Assembly (NCBI GenBank): GCA_029101005.1
Contig: JAQXQE010000015.1
Coordinates: 58,720 to 122,719, forward strand
Reading direction: 5' to 3'
Source of the DNA: Bacillota bacterium
Lineage (GTDB): Bacteria > Bacillota > Clostridia > Peptostreptococcales > Anaerovoracaceae
DNA length: 64,000 nt
Part shown: positions 13,494 to 59,112 of the stretch, piece by piece
Numbering within the stretch: position 1 is the stretch's first letter
Layout: each line of letters starts with the position of its first letter
The notes under the pieces: model-generated
Told to the model about the DNA's origin: nothing
Databases searched by the model: none
What the model saw: only the letters and a program-made list of their open reading frames with translations
Position numbers and translations under genes: made by a program

Positions 13494-13517
13494 TATTTCG
13501 ATACAAGGGAGAGAGAT

Positions 13518-14006
13518 ATGGCTAAGAAAGAGAAGATTGAGAAGACAAATGCAATGAGACTGCTTGATCAGGCAGGAATTGAATATGGACATTCTCAGTA
13601 CGAGTACGATGAATCAGATCTTTCGGGTACACATGCAGCAGAAGCACTTGGCGTATCAGCGGACGAGGTCTTCAAGACTCTCGTTGCTAGAGGTAACGAT
13701 AAATTATTATCGGTATTTGTTATTCCATCTTCTGCTAATCTCGATCTTAAGAAGGCTGCATCTGTTTCTCATCACAAGTCAATCGAGATGGTTCATGTCA
13801 AGGAACTCCTTGATCTGACTGGATATATTCGTGGCGGCTGTTCTCCAATCGGAATGAAGAAATTATATCCAACTTATATTGATGAAACGGCTGTTCTCTT
13901 TGATAAAATCTATATCTCAGCTGGTAAGAGGGGAGAGCAGATTGTTATTAATCCAGAGGTGCTGGCTGAATTCGTATCTGCCGAGTTTGCCGATTTGACC
14001 AAATAA
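13518..14006 (+). CDS. ybaK: Cys-tRNA(Pro)/Cys-tRNA(Cys) deacylase YbaK
   Basis: 162 aa with KTNAMRLLD at the N-terminus and a YIRGGCSPIGMKK block typical of free-standing YbaK editing domains. Confidence 0.8.
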   Translation: MAKKEKIEKTNAMRLLDQAGIEYGHSQYEYDESDLSGTHAAEALGVSADEVFKTLVARGNDKLLSVFVIPSSANLDLKKAASVSHHKSIEMVHVKELLDLTGYIRGGCSPIGMKKLYPTYIDETAVLFDKIYISAGKRGEQIVINPEVLAEFVSAEFADLTK

Positions 14007-14109
14007 TTACACAGTGCTTATGCATTTCTAATGTTACAATCCAATCAAACGTTGAAATTTCAAGGTGTTCAAGGGTTTACCAGGACACCTGATTATTTTG
14101 AAAAAATTT

Positions 14110-14123
14110 CGAAAATTTGTTCG
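14110..14123 (+). promoter_or_regulatory. LexA (Cheo) box 1 upstream of the YneA-like gene
   Basis: CGAAAATTTGTTCG compared with the Firmicute consensus CGAAC-N4-GTTCG shows one mismatch. It sits just upstream of the -35 element. Confidence 0.65.
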
Positions 14124-14130
14124 ATTTCTG

Positions 14131-14158
14131 TTGACACTTTGTTCTGAAGGAGTATAAT
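14131..14158 (+). promoter_or_regulatory. Sigma-A-type promoter of the YneA-like gene
   Basis: TTGACA (14131-14136), a 16-nt spacer, then TATAAT (14153-14158). Confidence 0.65.
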
Positions 14159-14164
14159 ACAAAT

Positions 14165-14191
14165 AGAACAAGTGTTCCGAACAAATATTCG
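14165..14191 (+). promoter_or_regulatory. LexA boxes 2 and 3 (sharing one base) between the -10 element and the start codon
   Basis: AGAACAAGTGTTCC (14165-14178, GAAC-N4-GTTC core intact) and CGAACAAATATTCG (14178-14191, one mismatch). Confidence 0.65.
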
Positions 14192-14208
14192 CAATGGAGG
14201 TAATTGAA

Positions 14209-14514
14209 ATGTTTAAGAAGTACAAGATTGTTTCACCAGTAAGATTCTTCATATTCGTACTGTTAACAACCATGATTCTGGTATTCGGTCTTGTTACTGT
14301 ATTTACAAGTGCAAGAACTGAAGCTGCGACTATTAATTCATTCGTACAGGTTGAGATTAATGAGAATGATACATTATGGACAATCGCAACAGAATATGCA
14401 GATGATTCTATGGATATCAGAAAGTTCATCGATGAGCTTCGTGAGATTAACGATATCGATGCTAACGATTCAATTCATCCTGGTGATCAGATATTTATCC
14501 CAATCTACGAATAA
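14209..14514 (+). CDS. YneA-like small membrane-anchored LysM protein (candidate SOS cell-division inhibitor)
   Basis: One N-terminal TM helix (FFIFVLLTTMILVFGLVTVF) is followed by a LysM domain (NDTLWTIATEYA...IHPGDQIFIP). I prefer ATG 14209 (GGAGG 8 nt upstream) over the track start 14194, which has no RBS and abuts a LexA box. Three LexA boxes lie in its promoter. Confidence 0.7.
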   Translation: MFKKYKIVSPVRFFIFVLLTTMILVFGLVTVFTSARTEAATINSFVQVEINENDTLWTIATEYADDSMDIRKFIDELREINDIDANDSIHPGDQIFIPIYE

Positions 14515-15015
14515 GCCAATGCTAGATCCATATAAGGCGTTCTTCCAGTAGTCTTATATGTCTGGATAGTGTGTTTCATTTAGTATAGCCGTGAGATTAC
14601 AGTAACTTATGCATCCTCAAACTGTAATTTTGCGGCTGTTCTAAGTAAGACCGAAATTTGCGGTTTAAGGCTCAAATACGGTAGGTATCAATACCTAAGA
14701 GCCTTACAAAAAATCGCTTAAATCGCAAATAAACGCCTCGAAATTTCCGCCATATTACGACAGATATCAATGACATAGATCAGAGATTAATAATTACGAC
14801 CAGATATTCAGATTCTTATTAATTAGTCTGAAGCTGGTCGTTTATTGTATATGTATGCGAAAAAGATATATCAAGCTGATTTGATGAATCAGGGCCTCTT
14901 TCGTGTGGTAACTATTCCCAAAATTGTGATTTTAGGAATAGTTAAATATAGCAAATATGAGGAATTTACAGCCCTAATAAGCTATCCCCTCGCATTCTCG
15001 CATATCACGCAAAGC

Positions 15016-15046
15016 AAAAAGAACCTGATAATAATCAGGTTCTTTT
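15016..15046. terminator. Bidirectional rho-independent terminator ending the chi operon
   Basis: AAAAA-GAACCTGAT-aata-ATCAGGTTC-TTTT. It lies 31 nt downstream of the propeller gene stop. Confidence 0.8.
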
Positions 15047-15076
15047 CGTTAAATAATAAGTAAGTAATTAGTGTTA

Positions 15077-16465
15077 CTAATCCTCGTAAGTCTTTCTAAG
15101 GATGTAGAATCCGTCCTCGAGTGCATCGATGATTATGTTACCTCTATCGTCTACTACAACATCCTCTGTTGATGCCAGATGTGGTCCCGGGAATGGGAAG
15201 AATCTGTGTGTTGGATTTGGAGGGATGAAGTATGCCTTCTCCTTGATGTAGTATGGATCTGAAACATCGTAGATTCTAAGACCTGCGTGGAAGTAGCAGT
15301 TGTATACAACATCTGTTCTCTGCTCCAGCCATGGCTTTCCGTCCATAGGCTCGTGGAGGTTGTGTGGACCGAATGGACCAATTCCTCCGTTGAGGCCGTA
15401 TGTATTGAAGTTTGGTGCCGGGAAGTCCTCTGGAACTTCTGGATATGGGAACTGTGCAATCATTACAGGATTTGTTGGATCACTTACATCTACCATATGG
15501 ATGTTGTTCATTGCCTGCGGCTTGTTAAGTGTTCCCTCTGGGAAGAATCCGTATCTCTCACCCTCGTTTGTAACAACACAGAGATTTCTTCCCTTCAACG
15601 GAAGAGCTGTGTGTGTTCTTGCTCCAGCGAGGTGGCTTGAGAATGCAGGCATGAACTTGAGATTACCAAGTGCCTTAGGTCTCTTTGGGTTCTCAACGTC
15701 CACGATCATAAGACCATCTCCACAGTATCCCATATATGCCTTTCCATCCATTACGAATGGAGGTCCATGCAGCCAACCCTTGTCCATGAAGTTAGGATTA
15801 TGTGGCTCCTGGTGATTAACTGTTCTGCCAGGTACACCATCAACATACTGGTGTGGCGCCCACCATCTACCCTCCTCATAAGGATTTGTTGGATCTGAGA
15901 TATTGATGATTCTGTAGATAAGACCCTCGAACTCATCAGCCTCACATGACAGATGTACGTAATCTCCACCGTTGTACATGAATCTGTGAACACCCATTGA
16001 ATGTGGAACTCCGCAGTCCCAGTATGAGAGGAACTTAGGATTCTCTGGATCCTCCTTAAGGCTGTAGATTCTGATGCCCTGCTCTGACTTGAGCTCTGAG
16101 AGTCTGTCACCTACGAGGGCTCCAGGACCAGCTCCTGATGTCATAGCGAGGATCATCAGATCATCAGCAATCTGAATCTTAGGGATAGATGTTGTTGGCA
16201 TCTCCTCAACATCGAATGGTACGAATTTCTTAATAAACTTTGGATTTTTTGGGTCAGTTACATCACTGATCATAACACCTACTCCGTTAGGACCTGCAGC
16301 GAATGCAGCACCGTAGAGAAGATATCTTCCATCCTCAGTCTTATAAAGAGCCATTTGGAACATTCCACATGTACCATCCATGTCACAATATGAGAGTACC
16401 TCGAGGTTTTTTATATAACCGTCGTTACCCTCACCTTTTGAATAAAAGTACTTTCCGTTACCCAT
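15077..16465 (-). CDS. LVIVD-repeat beta-propeller protein, function unknown
   Basis: 462 aa with six recurring hydrophobic-strand plus D-P-x-N-P blocks: MISDVTDPKNPKF, IRIYSLKEDPENPKF, YRIINISDPTNPYE, LMIVDVENPKRPKA, IHMVDVSDPTNPVM and LRIYDVSDPYYIK. It has no signal peptide and is the last gene of the chalcone-isomerase operon. Confidence 0.7.
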   Translation of the reverse strand: MGNGKYFYSKGEGNDGYIKNLEVLSYCDMDGTCGMFQMALYKTEDGRYLLYGAAFAAGPNGVGVMISDVTDPKNPKFIKKFVPFDVEEMPTTSIPKIQIADDLMILAMTSGAGPGALVGDRLSELKSEQGIRIYSLKEDPENPKFLSYWDCGVPHSMGVHRFMYNGGDYVHLSCEADEFEGLIYRIINISDPTNPYEEGRWWAPHQYVDGVPGRTVNHQEPHNPNFMDKGWLHGPPFVMDGKAYMGYCGDGLMIVDVENPKRPKALGNLKFMPAFSSHLAGARTHTALPLKGRNLCVVTNEGERYGFFPEGTLNKPQAMNNIHMVDVSDPTNPVMIAQFPYPEVPEDFPAPNFNTYGLNGGIGPFGPHNLHEPMDGKPWLEQRTDVVYNCYFHAGLRIYDVSDPYYIKEKAYFIPPNPTHRFFPFPGPHLASTEDVVVDDRGNIIIDALEDGFYILRKTYED

Positions 16466-16491
16466 TATAACTCCTTCTTACCGATAATAAA

Positions 16492-16995
16492 TTATCGTCC
16501 ATTAATTACTCTGTGAATTTTATCGAGAAGTGCTCCTACATAATACACACCTACCAGCATGGCAACTCCAATCTGAACTGCCAGATTAGGAAGTCCTGTT
16601 GTGGTGTCGAGATTCATTGTCAACATTGCAATTGCCCATCCGGCAAGCCATGATGGCATATGAATGATATTAGGAATCATGCTCGATATTACAACTACCA
16701 GGAATCCAAGTACAAAGAGCAGCAGGAACAGCAGAATATCTGGATTAAGTGTATGATTATTAACCATGGCAAATGTAGCAATCAATGACCAGCTGTCACC
16801 TGCCAGATAACCAAGAGCTATCTTATGTGCATCTTCGAACTTGTTTCCATTAGTTGCATATATACCTGCACAAATAAGTGCAATTGGACCAACGCTTACG
16901 CCTATATAAGGGCTTGCAACTGCCCATAAGGGAGGAAGAATTCCTATGAGCAGAGCAAGCGTGATGATTTCTTTGTTAATCGTATTACCCTTCAT
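16492..16995 (-). CDS. Small polytopic membrane protein (DUF1097-like)
   Basis: 167 aa with about five predicted TM helices. It starts 4 nt after the chalcone isomerase stop. The family assignment is from memory only. Confidence 0.5.
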   Translation of the reverse strand: MKGNTINKEIITLALLIGILPPLWAVASPYIGVSVGPIALICAGIYATNGNKFEDAHKIALGYLAGDSWSLIATFAMVNNHTLNPDILLFLLLFVLGFLVVVISSMIPNIIHMPSWLAGWAIAMLTMNLDTTTGLPNLAVQIGVAMLVGVYYVGALLDKIHRVINGR

Positions 16996-16999
16996 TGGA

Positions 17000-17851
17000 C
17001 TATCTCATTGTGATATATCCGCGGTAATTTGTAAGATTGTTGAATGCTGTGTAATCAGCAACAGCTGTTGAGATTACGTTATGTCTTGGCTTGAGGTATG
17101 GGAATGTATCTGTCATAGCCCACTCAGGCTTTCTGATTGACTTAACATCCTCTACGAATACCTTCTCCCACTCTGACTGGCATCCAACCCAGATCTCAAG
17201 AGCCCAATCCATTACACAGCCGTTAATGTCCTTCTTAACAGCACTTGCAAGGATTCTTGTAACCTCTGGAGCAGCCTCGAATACTGGAATAACCTCCTCG
17301 AAAAGCCACTTCTCACCTTCTGCCTTATCAACACCCTCCGGGAATCCGATAGCCATATTGAAACGATAGTTTGCACCATCCTCAATTGTGCGACCCTTAC
17401 CCTTGATGTCCTTCTCCCACCACATTGGGAGGAATGCGAAGATAAATGGGTTACCTGCAGCATCATTTGTCTGACGAGCAGTGTTACCGGCATCTCCGTC
17501 TGACTCAATCTGTCCGTGACCAAGCGCTGTCTCTGGAAGGTTACCCTGCCATACGAGAACATCCAGTGGGAATGTCTCCTGAAGAGCCTTAATTCCGAGT
17601 CTTGGATCGAGGTCGCTTACGAGCCAGTGATGCTCTGTAAGCTGCATTCTTGCATAACCGTAGTTGTCAGCGCCTGTTGGCATCGGGAATGCTGGATAGA
17701 AAGCATACTTAGTTACATATGGCTCGAACTGAGAAATGCTCTCTGGAATATGTGTCTTGTGAAGCCATCTCTGAAGCTTAGGTCTGTAGTCCTCCTTAGC
17801 GCAGTCTACATAGATAAGACTTCTCATTGGCTCAAATTTGAAATCTGCCAT
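17000..17851 (-). CDS. chi: Bacterial-type chalcone isomerase
   Basis: 283 aa. The N-terminus MADFKFEPMRSLIYVDC, the C-terminus NYRGYITMR and internal blocks match my recollection of the Eubacterium ramulus CHI sequence (about 282 aa). The internal blocks are GYARMQLTEHHWLVSDLDPRL, GNPFIFAFLPMWWEKD, GRTIEDGANYRFNM, FPEGVDKAEGEKWLFE and ASAVKKDINGCVMDW. Confidence 0.85.
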   Translation of the reverse strand: MADFKFEPMRSLIYVDCAKEDYRPKLQRWLHKTHIPESISQFEPYVTKYAFYPAFPMPTGADNYGYARMQLTEHHWLVSDLDPRLGIKALQETFPLDVLVWQGNLPETALGHGQIESDGDAGNTARQTNDAAGNPFIFAFLPMWWEKDIKGKGRTIEDGANYRFNMAIGFPEGVDKAEGEKWLFEEVIPVFEAAPEVTRILASAVKKDINGCVMDWALEIWVGCQSEWEKVFVEDVKSIRKPEWAMTDTFPYLKPRHNVISTAVADYTAFNNLTNYRGYITMR

Positions 17852-17945
17852 TGTTTCACCTCTTTATTTAACTTACCACTAACGACTAGCATCAATTTGC
17901 TAGTCGTCAGTGTGATTATAACGAAATGAGTATGATTAGTATGTA

Positions 17946-18929
17946 TTAGTTCTTTGATGGAGCTGGTGTTGGCTCAATAACCTCTGTGTAGTGCTTCTTT
18001 CTAGCCTGGAACTCTGGATCCTTGAAGAGGTTCATGAGTCTTCCCTCGTTCTCAAAGATGTCCTGACCGTGAAGAGCTTTTCCTGAGAGGATATCATGAG
18101 CGTGGAACTCTGTAGCTGGGTCGAATGAGAACTTGATAGCTCCGTCTACAACCTTGAGCTCGCCTCTGAGTCCGCAAAGCTCGCACTCTACTGTTGTTGT
18201 TCCTGGGAATGCATAGAATGCGTTACCGTGACAGTGTGGGCAAGCGCAGTCAGCACCCTTCCAGTAATCAAGCTTGTCATTCTGCTCGTCGAAGATCATG
18301 AGGTTCTTGTCTATCATATCCTGAGCAGCCTCTACGAGGTTTCTTCCAATCTCCTGCATTCTAGCAACCTTGTCATCCTGCATGATGATGTCCTTACCCC
18401 ATGAGAAGAACTCGTTGTTAACAACCTTCCAACCAGGGCTCATAGCGAGCATAGCGTGGTCAGCCTCTGTTCTTACAGCCCAGTCTGATCCACCAACTCC
18501 TACGAATGAGATAGCCTTCTGCTTGAAGTATCTCATGTTTAGTGGCTCCTTACCCTGCTCAGCGAGCTTCTCCTGAAGTCCGAGGAGCATACCTGTGTCG
18601 TGTCCAGGACCCATTCTGTCGCAAATTGTCTTGAACATTCCGCTGCATCCTGACTCGTAGATTGGGTCTACGAAGAGAACTCCGTCAGCCTCAACCATCT
18701 TCTCGTAGAGAGCTGAGAAATCATCCTTTCTTGTGCAGATCATTCCCTTACCCATTACGAGACCTCTTGAACAAGCTACACAACCTGTGCACTGCTCGAT
18801 GTTCCAGTCGAATACGTGGATGAACTCGATCTCAGCGCCAAGCTTCTTAGCCTCCTCGAGTGCGATACGACACATAGTATCGTTATTACCGTTCTTTGTA
18901 CCTGATGTTGAAATTCCGAGAATCTTCAT
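17946..18929 (-). CDS. Flavodoxin-like NAD(P)H-dependent FMN reductase with Cys-rich insert and C-terminal CxxC...CxxC ribbon (candidate flavonoid ene-reductase)
   Basis: MKILGISTSGTKNGNNDT is a flavodoxin-fold N-terminus. CTGCVAC is a compact Cys motif as in iron-sulfur flavoproteins. The C-terminal CACPHCHG...ECELCG is a zinc-ribbon-like pair. Confidence 0.7.
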   Translation of the reverse strand: MKILGISTSGTKNGNNDTMCRIALEEAKKLGAEIEFIHVFDWNIEQCTGCVACSRGLVMGKGMICTRKDDFSALYEKMVEADGVLFVDPIYESGCSGMFKTICDRMGPGHDTGMLLGLQEKLAEQGKEPLNMRYFKQKAISFVGVGGSDWAVRTEADHAMLAMSPGWKVVNNEFFSWGKDIIMQDDKVARMQEIGRNLVEAAQDMIDKNLMIFDEQNDKLDYWKGADCACPHCHGNAFYAFPGTTTVECELCGLRGELKVVDGAIKFSFDPATEFHAHDILSGKALHGQDIFENEGRLMNLFKDPEFQARKKHYTEVIEPTPAPSKN

Positions 18930-19009
18930 TGTTTGATTTCCTCCTACTAATTACTTACCATTATATATTTTTAATGAAAAAACAACCATTGTTATATCTA
19001 ATCTTTCGA

Positions 19010-19477
19010 TTAGTGCTGCTCTGGAGCTGGCTCGTTGCAGATCTTTCTTGAGAGCTTGTCAGCTACAGGGTTCATAAGGAATGCCACGATGAATGCTACA
19101 ACGTAAGCTGGAATGAATCCTGTGATTGTTCCCATAACGAATGCGATTACTGGAGCATGTCCGATTACGAGTGTTCCAACAGCTGTCATAATGATGTCAA
19201 GAATTACTGTGAATACGAGTGAAATTACTGCATTAACCATCAGACCGAACTTCAGTGTTCCTGGCTGTGCGTGCTTAGCTGCGAAGTCAAATCCCCACTT
19301 GCCGCATGGAAGGAAGTTTACGAAGAATGTGATTACATATGCAAGTATTGACATTGCGATGAATCCTGGAAGATTCAGTGAACCTGAGAGTGTCATCATA
19401 AGAAGTGTGATGATGATTGACAGTGGAAGGTCCATAATCAGTGCATATACTGCTGTAAGTTTAGCGCTCTTTCTCAT
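19010..19477 (-). CDS. Small 4-TM membrane protein with internal two-helix duplication (DUF2798-like)
   Basis: 155 aa; two similar 2-TM halves are visible. It is the first gene after the LysR terminator/operator region and has a good RBS (AAAGGAG). Confidence 0.5.
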   Translation of the reverse strand: MRKSAKLTAVYALIMDLPLSIIITLLMMTLSGSLNLPGFIAMSILAYVITFFVNFLPCGKWGFDFAAKHAQPGTLKFGLMVNAVISLVFTVILDIIMTAVGTLVIGHAPVIAFVMGTITGFIPAYVVAFIVAFLMNPVADKLSRKICNEPAPEQH

Positions 19478-19508
19478 TTGTTAAATCTCCTTTAGTAATA
19501 GATTTGTG

Positions 19509-19552
19509 AAAAAAAATACAAGTTTTGATAACTAAAGTTTAGTCATCAAAAC
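19509..19552 (-). terminator. Hairpin plus T8 tract after lysR (terminator or attenuator)
   Basis: The minus strand reads GTTTTGATgACTAAactTTAGTtATCAAAAC followed by TTGTATTTTTTTT. The stem is AT-rich. Confidence 0.45.
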
Positions 19553-19587
19553 CTGCTTTGTACAATTCCTATCCGCTTATGCACTTC

Positions 19588-19603
19588 ATAACAAAAATGT
19601 TAT
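19588..19603. promoter_or_regulatory. Perfect inverted repeat ATAACA-N4-TGTTAT, candidate LysR operator
   Basis: It lies 10 nt downstream of the LysR stop, in the 135-nt gap before the first structural gene of the chi operon. Confidence 0.35.
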
Positions 19604-19612
19604 GGTCATAAT

Positions 19613-20494
19613 CTATTGATTATGCTTATACGTCTCCCTCAATACATCGGCCATATATCTAGCAACTGGATCATCATTACTCCTCATAATAAGCACCGAA
19701 ATTGTATCTTTCGAATCAAGTGGAACCACACCAATATCTTCAGCATTGTTAGCCCACACCCACTCGTCAGTAATGGCTACACCCATTCCATTTCTTACGC
19801 ATGTAATCATCGACTCATGGTTTGGAACAAACTGCAGAGTTGGCATGAAGTTATAAGACTGCATGCAATCTGAAATTGCCTTAGAAACCATCCTATCTAC
19901 TACGCTGTATGGTGCGAAGAATGGTACATCCTTGAAATCATATGCTGTATATGGCTCATAAGGAAAAGTTCTAGTAGAGTAGATTAAAGTCTTACCAACA
20001 TCGCAGATATCCAATGTCTCAATCTCACCGATATCGTGTACTGAATTTTTCATCGAAACAGCAATATCGAGTCCGTCGGTAAGAAGGAATGTAGACAGCT
20101 CCTTAATACCACAGCAGTTGATAATTACCTTGATGTCAGGATACACTTCGTTGAACTTGCTGATAATATTCGGAACATAGTCATAGAGATCCCAGCCCTC
20201 GAGAAAACCAAGTTTGATTACTCTCTCAGTCTTCTTCTCGAGCGCAAGTGCTTCTTTCTTCGTCCTGATGAATTCCGCCTTAAACTCTTTGAACATCTCA
20301 TAGTAGAGCTTACCAGCGTCAGTAAGTTCAGTTTTCTTATTGTTACGTTTGAATAGCTTAACGCCAAGTTCCCTCTCCATAACAGCAATCTGTCTTGAAA
20401 TTGCCGGCTGAGAGACGAATAACTCCTCTGATGTCTTTGTAAAACTCAGATTAGTGGCTACCGCCATAAAGTAATCTATCTGTACTTCATTCAT
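19613..20494 (-). CDS. LysR-family transcriptional regulator
   Basis: N-terminal wHTH FTKTSEELFVSQPAISRQIAVMERELGVKLFKR followed by a periplasmic-binding-like effector domain; 293 aa. Confidence 0.9.
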   Translation of the reverse strand: MNEVQIDYFMAVATNLSFTKTSEELFVSQPAISRQIAVMERELGVKLFKRNNKKTELTDAGKLYYEMFKEFKAEFIRTKKEALALEKKTERVIKLGFLEGWDLYDYVPNIISKFNEVYPDIKVIINCCGIKELSTFLLTDGLDIAVSMKNSVHDIGEIETLDICDVGKTLIYSTRTFPYEPYTAYDFKDVPFFAPYSVVDRMVSKAISDCMQSYNFMPTLQFVPNHESMITCVRNGMGVAITDEWVWANNAEDIGVVPLDSKDTISVLIMRSNDDPVARYMADVLRETYKHNQ

Positions 20495-58464: not shown

Positions 58465-59112
58465 CTAGTGCTCGACAGATGTCTGCAGCGAGTAGATTAC
58501 CCATTCTGCGATATTTGTCGCGTGATCACCTATTCTCTCGAAATACTTTGCAATCATCAGAAGATCAGTTGCTTCCTCACCCTCATTCGGCTCATCGAGT
58601 ATCAGCTTGATGACATCCTTCTTAGCTTCGCTGAAGAGCTTATCCACGATATCATCGTGTGCAATTACTTCCTCAGCCTTAGGGATATCCTTCTCTACAT
58701 ATGCTTCAATGCTGTGATTGAGCATCATCATAGTCTCGCTGGCCATCTTTCTGATGTGGTCATACTTCTCAACTGGGCTGTTCTGTCCCATAAGGACTGT
58801 AATCTCTGAGATGTCTGCAGCGTGGTCACCAATTCTCTCCATATCAGTTACCATCTTCATAGCAGCTGTAACAGTTCTCAGATCTCTTGCTACAGGTTGC
58901 TGCTGAATCAACAGATTGAAGCAGGTACTCTCGATAGTCTTCTGAAGGCGATCAACCTCAATATCCTCCTCCATAATCTGTCTTGCGAGATCCTCATTAT
59001 GAGTGATAAGCGCCTCAATTGCTGACTTGATAGAAAGGATAATCTTGTTGCCCATCTCTATCATTTCTCTGTTAAGCTCGGCGAGTTGTTCATCAAATTT
59101 GCTTCTCATCAA
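58465..59112 (-). CDS. phoU: Phosphate signalling complex protein PhoU
   Basis: 215 aa with two ERIGDHA repeats. Confidence 0.92.
   Translation of the reverse strand: MMRSKFDEQLAELNREMIEMGNKIILSIKSAIEALITHNEDLARQIMEEDIEVDRLQKTIESTCFNLLIQQQPVARDLRTVTAAMKMVTDMERIGDHAADISEITVLMGQNSPVEKYDHIRKMASETMMMLNHSIEAYVEKDIPKAEEVIAHDDIVDKLFSEAKKDVIKLILDEPNEGEEATDLLMIAKYFERIGDHATNIAEWVIYSLQTSVEH

Follow-up and report, generated by a model that had tools for sequence, protein, structure and literature searches.

A 64,000-nucleotide stretch of contig JAQXQE010000015.1 (assembly GCA_029101005.1, from a member of the Anaerovoracaceae; positions 58,720 to 122,719), here called the window, carries on its minus strand, between 15,077 and 20,494, six genes for a LysR-type regulator, a small membrane protein of a family that we term TM4, a flavone reductase (FLR), a bacterial chalcone isomerase (CHI), a DUF1097 membrane protein and an LVIVD beta-propeller protein. 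It is proposed that the locus is a LysR-controlled flavone/flavonol catabolic operon in which the propeller cleaves an auronol; this is our best explanation of the locus as a whole, and we consider it evenly poised between right and wrong. Its parts differ in strength. Judged from the conserved sequences, a flavonoid operon with active FLR and CHI is very probable, and the propeller is predicted with nearly the same assurance to be a functional part of the flavonoid pathway; its specific reaction, from auronol to phloroglucinol and arylpyruvate, is a candidate assignment with at best an even chance of being correct. The closest genomes are metagenome-assembled genomes (MAGs) of Anaerovoracaceae, e.g. 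Candidatus Crickella merdequi, whose propellers are 96-97% identical to that of the window, so that the window does not come from Eubacterium ramulus.

The 327-aa gene product had been called a flavodoxin-like FMN reductase in a preceding model annotation made without database searches (the sequence-only reading). The label is right as far as the FMN_red domain (PF03358) goes, but it overlooked the actual identity of the protein, which aligns over its full length with PDB entries 7D38, 7D39, 7D3A and 7D3B (7D38, E 2.3e-79, residues 1-321), that is, with the flavone reductase FLR of Flavonifractor plautii (PMC7862272). The window FLR is 44% identical to F. plautii FLR and 73% identical to the FLR-like gene product adjoining chi in Eubacterium ramulus. 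Because the genetically validated FLR of Clostridium ljungdahlii shares only 29.7% identity with that of F. plautii, the window protein lies well inside the functional range of the family. The structure paper names 17 residues for FMN/cofactor, substrate or dimer contacts, of which 12 are kept. Among the FMN contacts these include Asn15, Ile89, Glu91, Asp103, Val144, Gly146, Ser147 and Trp149, while Met10, Ser14 and Lys92 are changed to Thr, Asn and Ser, respectively. The C-terminal extension, or tail, is essential for activity and substrate stacking (PMC7862272); here the aligned region reaches residue 305 (of 310), with His271, Ile275 and Thr305 kept and Thr279 and Lys282 replaced by Glu and Leu. 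A conserved CxxC...CxxC pattern in the C-terminal subdomain of FLRs (C230/C233 and C249/C252 in the window, C216/C219 and C233/C236 in F. plautii) looks like a zinc ribbon, and one JGI annotation reads "Zn finger protein"; zinc is not mentioned in the FLR structure paper (PMC7862272).

The 283-aa product had been taken for a bacterial CHI homolog, and it proved to be a genuine one: 283 of 283 residues align with E. ramulus CHI (4D06, E 1.8e-159) at 78% identity. The two proteins are identical at catalytic His33 and at Tyr48, Thr71, His73, Asp79, Gln101, Arg125 and Phe135, and the relay residue Asp36 is replaced by Glu in the window. Roles in the active site have been described for catalytic His33, for His73, Asp79, Gln101, Arg125 and Phe135, and for the Asp36 relay (PMC9694015). 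With FLR and CHI both identified, the locus covers both initial steps of the gut-bacterial route as published (FLR, CHI, Fcr/EnoR and Phy), not CHI alone. The description of chi as tied to three proteins that lack an assigned role is not supported, since the 327-aa protein is the very enzyme that the sequence-only reading itself had listed as the first step of the pathway.

Several further observations concern the CHI family. The CHI proteins of the clade that includes the window (loci L001-L006 and L046; L numbers denote the loci compared here) are of the E. ramulus type, 76-78% identical to 4D06. Those of L007-L045 are only about 47% identical to the window protein though the operons are collinear, with FLR 73-80%, propeller 78% and TM4 about 60% identical, and the identities of all CHI matches are bimodal, 63-90% and then 55% or less. 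It looks, from these sequence comparisons, as if chi had been replaced in place by a distant xenolog in collinear Anaerovoracaceae operons. Pfam spans the N-terminal domain of CHI only (PF18232). The bacterial CHI homologs P0121, P0131, P0204, P0214, P0216 and P0390 are labelled "acetyl-CoA hydrolase" by NCBI, which looks like a systematic misnaming.

The propeller is annotated in every source as "hypothetical" or "LVIVD repeat-containing". Its family is highly conserved: the best 120 database matches, from several bacterial families, are 58-97% identical, and in a library clustered at 50% identity the score falls from 686 to 338 bits past the first propeller representative. An AlphaFold2 model of high quality (pLDDT 90.4, pTM 0.92) gave as its top Foldseek match the phosphotriesterase of Sphingobium sp. 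TCM1 (Sb-PTE; 5HRM, E 1.1e-15, TM 0.61/0.58), and a profile built from 44 family members matched 5HRM/5IOJ over its full length (E 4.2e-22, positions 17-413). A single-sequence search of the PDB gave no match, and 5HRM was reached by the family profile and the fold search only. The NCBIfam model "choice-of-anchor B" was rejected for this protein, at 29 bits against a cut-off of 100. Neither a signal peptide nor a hydrophobic or membrane segment was detected in the propeller. A title cited in PMC11656708 describes Sb-PTE as a seven-bladed propeller with a binuclear metal centre.

The alignment of 44 propeller sequences, which reaches down to 25% identity, shows no variation at H233, D256, H285, E301 and H368 and almost none at H160, R161, D326, N369, R397 and D400. 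The metal ligands of Sb-PTE are reportedly Glu201, His258, His317, His389, Glu407 and His475 (Mabanglo et al. 2016), and all six numbers fall on residues of the expected types. With this list, hmmalign places His389 on H285, His475 on H368 and Glu407 on E303, two residues from the invariant E301, and His258 falls on H160 with an offset of one residue. Invariant H233 and D256 may possibly substitute for the ligands that remain unmatched. Taken together, these features make the propeller a candidate metal-dependent hydrolase, putatively cytoplasmic and enzyme-like. Its homology to Sb-PTE (a haloalkylphosphorus hydrolase) is that of one beta-propeller to another, in which four of the reported ligands align with conserved residues; in contrast, identity is only about 15%, two of the reported ligands are not conserved, and the window protein has a cytoplasmic, anaerobic setting among flavonoid genes. 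A phosphotriester substrate is implausible in this gene context, and the protein is not classed here as a phosphotriesterase.

The conserved linkage of the propeller was established in a propeller-seeded scan with one genome per species, which found 353 places with a relative; the linkage counts are from the best 80. In 60 of these 80 loci FLR, CHI and propeller genes all run in the same direction; the three take up 3.4 kb at the median and 4.35 kb at most, and at least nine gene orders occur, among them TM4-FLR-CHI-propeller-DUF1097, FLR-CHI-propeller and, in Clostridioides difficile, propeller-FLR-DUF1097-CHI. The module occurs in Anaerovoracaceae, Emergencia, Lachnospiraceae, Clostridium, C. 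difficile, Tepidanaerobacter and Spirochaetia; the cases of Tepidanaerobacter acetatoxydans and of a Spirochaetia MAG came from look-ups seeded with CHI. The neighbours of chi in the window thus keep company with it in other genomes as well. Within the module the propeller is the best conserved member, with a median identity of 77% as compared with 73% for FLR and 48% for CHI.

The same core adjoins the characterised enzyme. Contigs carrying the F. plautii FLR (99.7-100% identical) read LysR (divergent), then FLR-CHI-167-aa TM4-family protein-LVIVD propeller-GntP-like permease. The window had been described as a compact, non-canonical flavonoid locus; because the module is widespread and present beside F. 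plautii FLR, it is better regarded as a member of a conserved module than as an oddity. The two loci have in common LysR, FLR, CHI, a TM4-family protein and an LVIVD propeller (53% identical), with FLR and CHI 44% and 46% identical. They differ in that the F. plautii lysR is divergent and its product has no detectable similarity to the window LysR, in that DUF1097 is missing and a GntP-like permease follows the propeller, and in the absence of the ATAAC box described below. Yang et al. 2021 (PMC7862272) give FLR and CHI the consecutive tags A4U99_05915 and A4U99_05920 and assign no role to the genes after chi; FLR was discovered there among the STRING neighbourhood and co-occurrence partners of chi, which were assayed for apigenin reduction only.

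A second line of evidence is regulatory. The window LysR carries an N-terminal HTH_1 domain and a LysR substrate-binding domain, no NCBIfam equivalog reached its cut-off, and orthologs (43-58% identity) occupy the same position in 35 related loci. Alignment of the lysR-TM4 intergenic region with those of three diverged relatives revealed a dyad, ATAAC-N6-GTTAT, followed by TTGTAC, an 18-nt spacer and TAAACT. The dyad occurs once in the 64-kb window and in all 35 of the LysR-to-TM4 intergenic regions, where about 0.1 would be expected from the background rate over 1.67 Mb of loci, and almost all its other copies also precede module genes. In Emergencia-type loci it lies between LysR and FLR in nine of 12, and two more have it although no LysR was detected; where the propeller comes first or stands alone beside a LysR gene, the box is 107-137 nt upstream of the propeller. 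A typical LysR recognition site is a T-N11-A dyad close to -65 at the promoter under its control. Since the centre of the dyad lies some 66 nt ahead of the predicted start, where such a site is normally found, LysR is supported as the regulator of the operon, and ATAAC-N6-GTTAT is its predicted recognition site, placed relative to a start that depends on the predicted promoter. Because the same operator precedes stand-alone propellers, the propeller belongs to the same regulon even when it is apart from flr-chi. One such stand-alone LysR-propeller locus with the box (L096-98) is abundant in human-gut assemblies, and its tetranucleotide composition correlates with E. ramulus loci at r 0.97-0.98, as against 0.94 or less for other lineages, which is suggestive only of its belonging to E. 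ramulus; no ATAAC box was found upstream of flr in E. ramulus.

The six genes had been described as one operon with gaps of 4-135 nt, closed by a bidirectional terminator. The six minus-strand open reading frames (ORFs), their shared direction and their coordinates are confirmed, their Pfam families agree with the labels, and so are the gaps (lysR-TM4 135, TM4-FLR 80, FLR-CHI 94, CHI-DUF1097 4 and DUF1097-propeller 26 nt) and the closing terminator, whose 15-bp-stem hairpin is flanked by an A-run and a U-run and scores z -6.7 against shuffles. The single six-gene operon is not, because a second strong hairpin with a U-run separates lysR from the rest (Table 1). The unit is probably lysR, on its own transcript, plus a five-gene operon TM4-FLR-CHI-DUF1097-propeller. 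The putative operon promoter, TTGTAC-18-TAAACT, with a predicted start near 19529, has a -35 element that reads TTGTAC in three of the aligned loci and TTTTAC in the fourth, L046, and a -10 element that reads TAAACT in three and TATATT in Baileyella. In L005 and L046 the arms of the hairpin differ in sequence yet still pair, and the loop keeps TAAACT. We read the hairpin as a probable lysR terminator overlapping the operon promoter rather than as an attenuator in the operon leader, which was set aside because the conserved -10-like hexamer lies within the hairpin loop; it may serve as a terminator in the RNA, as a palindrome bound by protein, or in both ways.

Table 1. Features of the flavonoid locus, with positions in the window.
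Feature	Position	Strand	Basis or detail
LysR-type regulator, 293 aa	19613-20494	-	HTH_1 4.7e-20, LysR_substrate 2.7e-9 (Pfam)
Predicted LysR dyad operator, ATAAC-N6-GTTAT	19588-19603		centred ~-66 from predicted transcription start
Predicted promoter of the five-gene operon	19536-19565	-	TTGTAC (19565-19560), 18 nt, TAAACT (19541-19536)
Hairpin with U-run, likely lysR terminator	19518-19556	-	18-bp stem, dG -21.2 kcal/mol, z -5.4
Small membrane protein (TM4 family), 155 aa	19010-19477	-	hydropathy
FLR homolog, flavone/flavonol reductase, 327 aa	17946-18929	-	PDB 7D38 E 2.3e-79; PF03358 7.5e-21
Bacterial chalcone isomerase CHI, 283 aa	17000-17851	-	PDB 4D06 E 1.8e-159; Chalcone_N 1.1e-45
DUF1097 membrane protein, 167 aa	16492-16995	-	PF06496 3.6e-17
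LVIVD beta-propeller, 462 aa	15077-16465	-	AlphaFold2 model, 5HRM fold/profile match
Bidirectional intrinsic terminator, operon end	15015-15048	both	A-run, 15-bp stem, U-run; dG -20.4 kcal/mol, z -6.7 vs shuffles

We propose the following pathway. LysR would bind ATAAC-N6-GTTAT, some 66 nt ahead of the predicted start, and control the five-gene transcript, in response to an inducer that is presumably a flavonoid, and the TM4 and DUF1097 proteins would carry flavonoid aglycones or products through the membrane. FLR would reduce the C2=C3 bond, converting flavones to flavanones and flavonols to flavanonols, after which CHI would open flavanones to chalcones and contract flavanonols to auronols such as alphitonin. 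The propeller would then act as a metal-dependent hydrolase on the auronol, in its open alpha-diketone form, splitting it between the phloroglucinol ring and the neighbouring carbonyl to give phloroglucinol and an arylpyruvate. The latter would be converted elsewhere in the cell to arylacetate, with gain of ATP, by a 2-oxoacid:ferredoxin oxidoreductase (OFOR), a phosphotransacylase (PTA) and an acyl kinase, and phloroglucinol genes would consume the other half of the cleaved auronol. Such a route would bypass Fcr and Phy. The propeller is the candidate for the cleavage because it is the only conserved, soluble, enzyme-like protein of the module that lacks a role. Alphitonin cleavage has been ascribed to an "unknown enzyme" (PMC12203004, PMC11170127), and 3,4-dihydroxyphenylpyruvate and phloroglucinol are its hypothesised immediate products (PMC11170127). 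The alphitonin-degrading strain of the latter study, MGYG-HGUT-00127, is locus L047 of our set, and its propeller is 73% identical to that of the window.

The neighbourhoods of the module fit these products, since arylpyruvate-oxidising and phloroglucinol genes flank it. Eight propeller loci, which represent at least four lineages, have genes for OFOR or indolepyruvate ferredoxin oxidoreductase (IOR), phosphotransacylase and acyl kinase at the flanks of the module. In a Lacrimispora locus (L082) these genes form a tight co-directional run with it, OFOR alpha/beta/gamma-phosphate butyryltransferase (PTB)-like-butyrate-kinase-like-propeller-FLR-DUF1097-CHI-MFS; in L091 the large subunit IorA scores above the cut-off of the curated indolepyruvate (arylpyruvate) ferredoxin oxidoreductase equivalog; and in F. 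plautii OFOR subunits lie just upstream of the module. Four other loci (L048, L054, L073 and L079) have phloroglucinol-pathway genes at the flanks, in L079 in the order 3-hydroxyacyl dehydrogenase-SDR-Cyclase-BKACE-CoA transferase. An SDR reductase, a Cyclase-family hydrolase, a 3-hydroxyacyl dehydrogenase and a BKACE lyase are what we take to be the functions of the anaerobic phloroglucinol pathway, and their adjacency to the module, though not in the window, is consistent with phloroglucinol as a product. No full-length Fcr or Phy gene was found beside a propeller, and the single match, in L081, is to an Fcr-like gene of 31% identity that lies on the opposite strand.

Either product of CHI is compatible with the linkage to FLR and CHI, and the propeller might act on the flavone branch instead, hydrolysing or hydrating the chalcone (naringenin chalcone to phloroglucinol and p-coumarate) or splitting it by a retro-aldol reaction. 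The same acyl-phloroglucinol bond would be cut, and most propeller loci are without 2-oxoacid oxidoreductase genes. However, a cinnamate product would leave the recurrent arylpyruvate-type OFOR/IOR, PTB and kinase neighbours, in one case a tight run, unexplained, and the documented missing step is the cleavage of the auronol; we hold action on the chalcone to be unlikely.

That the propeller does not cleave at all, and instead binds or delivers flavonoids, works together with the membrane proteins or helps with stereochemistry, e.g. by epimerising flavanones, flavanonols or auronols ahead of CHI or Fcr, is an improbable reading, although many beta-propellers are scaffolds and the structural matches after 5HRM are mostly of the WD40 scaffold type. 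It would also suit the CHI loci that lack a propeller, and Braune 2019, as summarised in PMC13515148, stresses problems of stereospecificity between FLR, CHI and Fcr. Against a mere accessory stand the set of His, Asp and Glu residues that is invariant down to 25% identity, four of which coincide with the reported Sb-PTE ligands, the very high conservation of the propeller across families (58-97%) and its cytoplasmic nature, with no membrane segment.

Several facts weigh against auronol cleavage by the propeller. The nearest characterised propeller relative, Sb-PTE, hydrolyses P-O and not C-C bonds, and of the ligands reported for it, Glu201 falls on Thr92 and His317 in a loop insertion. The window holds none of the proposed downstream genes, and the OFOR, PTA and kinase genes accompany the module in only eight loci. 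The best 80 propeller loci are weighted to rumen and gut Anaerovoracaceae MAGs, and 16 of them have neither FLR nor CHI within 10 kb. In a CHI-seeded metagenome scan of 80 loci, about 40 of them from E. ramulus, all the E. ramulus loci are FLR-CHI only, with no propeller within 10 kb of chi, and only ten of the roughly 40 others have one; about a dozen of these others are bare CHI-FLR pairs, and three have phloroglucinol genes without a propeller, one of them with Fcr also and one with PTA/ACK. The pairing of flr with chi is therefore nearly universal, and the propeller is found in a subset of lineages only. E. ramulus converts alphitonin though its flr-chi stands without a propeller. In L169 (1-20831) PTA/ACK lies on one side of FLR-CHI and BKACE/HCDH/SDR on the other, with no propeller within 10 kb, so that there either the propeller is encoded elsewhere or another enzyme does its job.

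The bare flr-chi pair of E. ramulus also speaks for the first alternative of the sequence-only reading, that the neighbours are incidental and cleavage is left to Fcr and Phy encoded elsewhere in the genome, as do the limited view that 64 kb gives of a genome and the distance in F. plautii between Phy (A4U99_15225) and FLR/CHI (A4U99_05915/05920). We give this a slim chance: synteny across phyla survives repeated rearrangement, the operator is common to the operon and to stand-alone propellers, the 4- and 26-nt gaps around DUF1097 and the propeller favour co-transcription, and Fcr and Phy elsewhere in the genome would be compatible with a role for the propeller. A part in phloroglucinol catabolism, e.g. 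as an alternative hydrolase opening the dihydrophloroglucinol ring, is very improbable in spite of the pathway genes that adjoin the module in four loci, since L079 already has a Cyclase-family gene between SDR and BKACE, only those four propeller loci have such genes as against 60 of 80 with FLR and CHI, and the canonical cluster of L089/L090 has the phloroglucinol genes without a propeller.

We return, then, to auronol cleavage and put forward, as a possibility with slightly less than an even chance, that the propeller founds a class of "auronol hydrolase", a putative metal-dependent C-C hydrolase descended from the phosphotriesterase-type propeller fold, which would form with FLR and CHI a route independent of Fcr and Phy under an ATAAC/LysR flavonoid-responsive switch. 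The published route is organised differently. An operon-like flr-fcr-phy cluster is known from Clostridium butyricum and C. ljungdahlii (PMC11868195; PMC7862272), and L089 and L090, which have no propeller, read CHI-FLR-...-Phy-Fcr with phloroglucinol genes in addition. Like the window these are clusters for anaerobic flavone/flavonol degradation that start with FLR, but in them the C ring is cleaved by Fcr, an OYE-type Fe-S flavoenzyme of about 660 aa, and Phy, of the DAPG-hydrolase family, whereas the window has CHI and a propeller and neither Fcr nor Phy. Phy and PhlG (DAPG_hydrolase family) resemble the propeller in the chemistry proposed for it, hydrolysis at a ring-acyl carbonyl with release of phloroglucinol, and have no kinship with it in sequence or fold; PhlG is metal-dependent. 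Between FLR and Phy in these loci (L089:11871-14054, L090:11845-15409) lie a small 2x[4Fe-4S] ferredoxin and a 567-aa fumarate-reductase-like flavoprotein (FAD_binding_2/Succ_DH_flav_C), and L090 adds URO-D-family genes; none of these has been assigned a role in flavonoid degradation.

Prior knowledge covers FLR and CHI, the fact that they adjoin, and the general principle of LysR-type control. The propeller, the two membrane families, the operator and the recurrent links to arylpyruvate oxidation and to phloroglucinol are new within the searchable literature; no functional role in flavonoid breakdown was found for the LVIVD propeller or for either membrane family in the literature searched, which did not include subscription-only papers. 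Gut, rumen and soil anaerobes convert dietary flavonols to phenylacetic acids, one of which, 4-hydroxyphenylacetate, reportedly reverses hepatic steatosis in mice (PMC9860326). The published set of FLR, CHI, Fcr/EnoR and Phy accounts for phenylpropionate and phenyllactate, not for the conversion of alphitonin to phloroglucinol and phenylacetate. The propeller offers a testable soluble candidate of about 460 aa, encoded in the same operon as FLR and CHI and present also in F. plautii and C. difficile. Were the proposal true, it would supply the enzyme that has been missing since the 2001 work on E. ramulus and explain the origin of the host-active metabolites 4-hydroxyphenylacetate and 3,4-dihydroxyphenylacetate, provide a marker gene for phenylacetate-producing flavonoid metabolism in metagenomes, add a new reaction to the propeller-hydrolase fold, and define a regulator-operator pair for flavonoid-responsive control in anaerobes.

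The two membrane proteins are constant companions of the module, which suggests a role in uptake or export; our guess is that they move flavonoid aglycones or products across the membrane. The TM4 protein has four clear hydrophobic segments and an overlapping N-terminal one by hydropathy, and no Pfam family was found for it, similarity to DUF2798 being below threshold. TM4 homologs (25-65% identity) are found in the module of Anaerovoracaceae, Lachnospiraceae, Clostridium, Tepidanaerobacter, Spirochaetia and F. plautii, and the DUF1097 gene is present in 42 of the 80 propeller-seeded loci, on either side of the propeller; L190 has the arrangement TM4-CHI-DUF1097. The idea that the two are distant homologs forming a heteromeric transporter was rejected (hhalign probability 1%), and neither showed a relation to characterised transporter families by Pfam or profile comparison. 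A 440-aa permease recurs beside the module in F. plautii (L099:5262-6587), the Spirochaetia MAG (L091:447-1763) and Parasporobacterium (L080, at about 15626). It has a faint GntP_permease match and no NCBIfam family, the L099 and L091 proteins are 52.6% identical, and it is a candidate transporter of substrate or product.

Some loci depart from the common arrangement. In a Mogibacterium MAG (L008:1-4969) the order is LysR-TM4-CHI-propeller with no room for FLR and with a second ATAAC-N6-GTTAT between TM4 and CHI, and this appears to be a natural variant without FLR. Extra pathway genes were sought beside the propellers that lack FLR and CHI, and only housekeeping genes (DegV, SEC-C, M3 peptidase, ECF, CoaBC and CarA) came up, apart from the recurrent LysR. 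In L096 (8546-8920), as in L097 and L098, LysR-propeller is preceded by a gene for a 124-aa protein with a charged N-terminal part, one C-terminal hydrophobic segment and no Pfam match.

The sequence-only reading had also seen nothing like Fcr or Phy in the window, and this was borne out: Pfam on size-matched ORFs (for Fcr, all those of 595-680 aa) and tblastn with the L089 Fcr and Phy (E <= 1e-3) were both empty over the 64 kb, where no IorAB, PTA/ACK or BKACE homologs were found by Pfam and tblastn either. The other genes of the window are housekeeping ones, including dxs, mutL, recG, alaS-ireB-ruvX and a pst-type transporter. Gene orientation flips from plus (1-14 kb) to minus (15-41 kb) near 13500-15100, where GC skew changes sign and cumulative skew peaks, and this region may be a replication terminus or a mere convergent junction.

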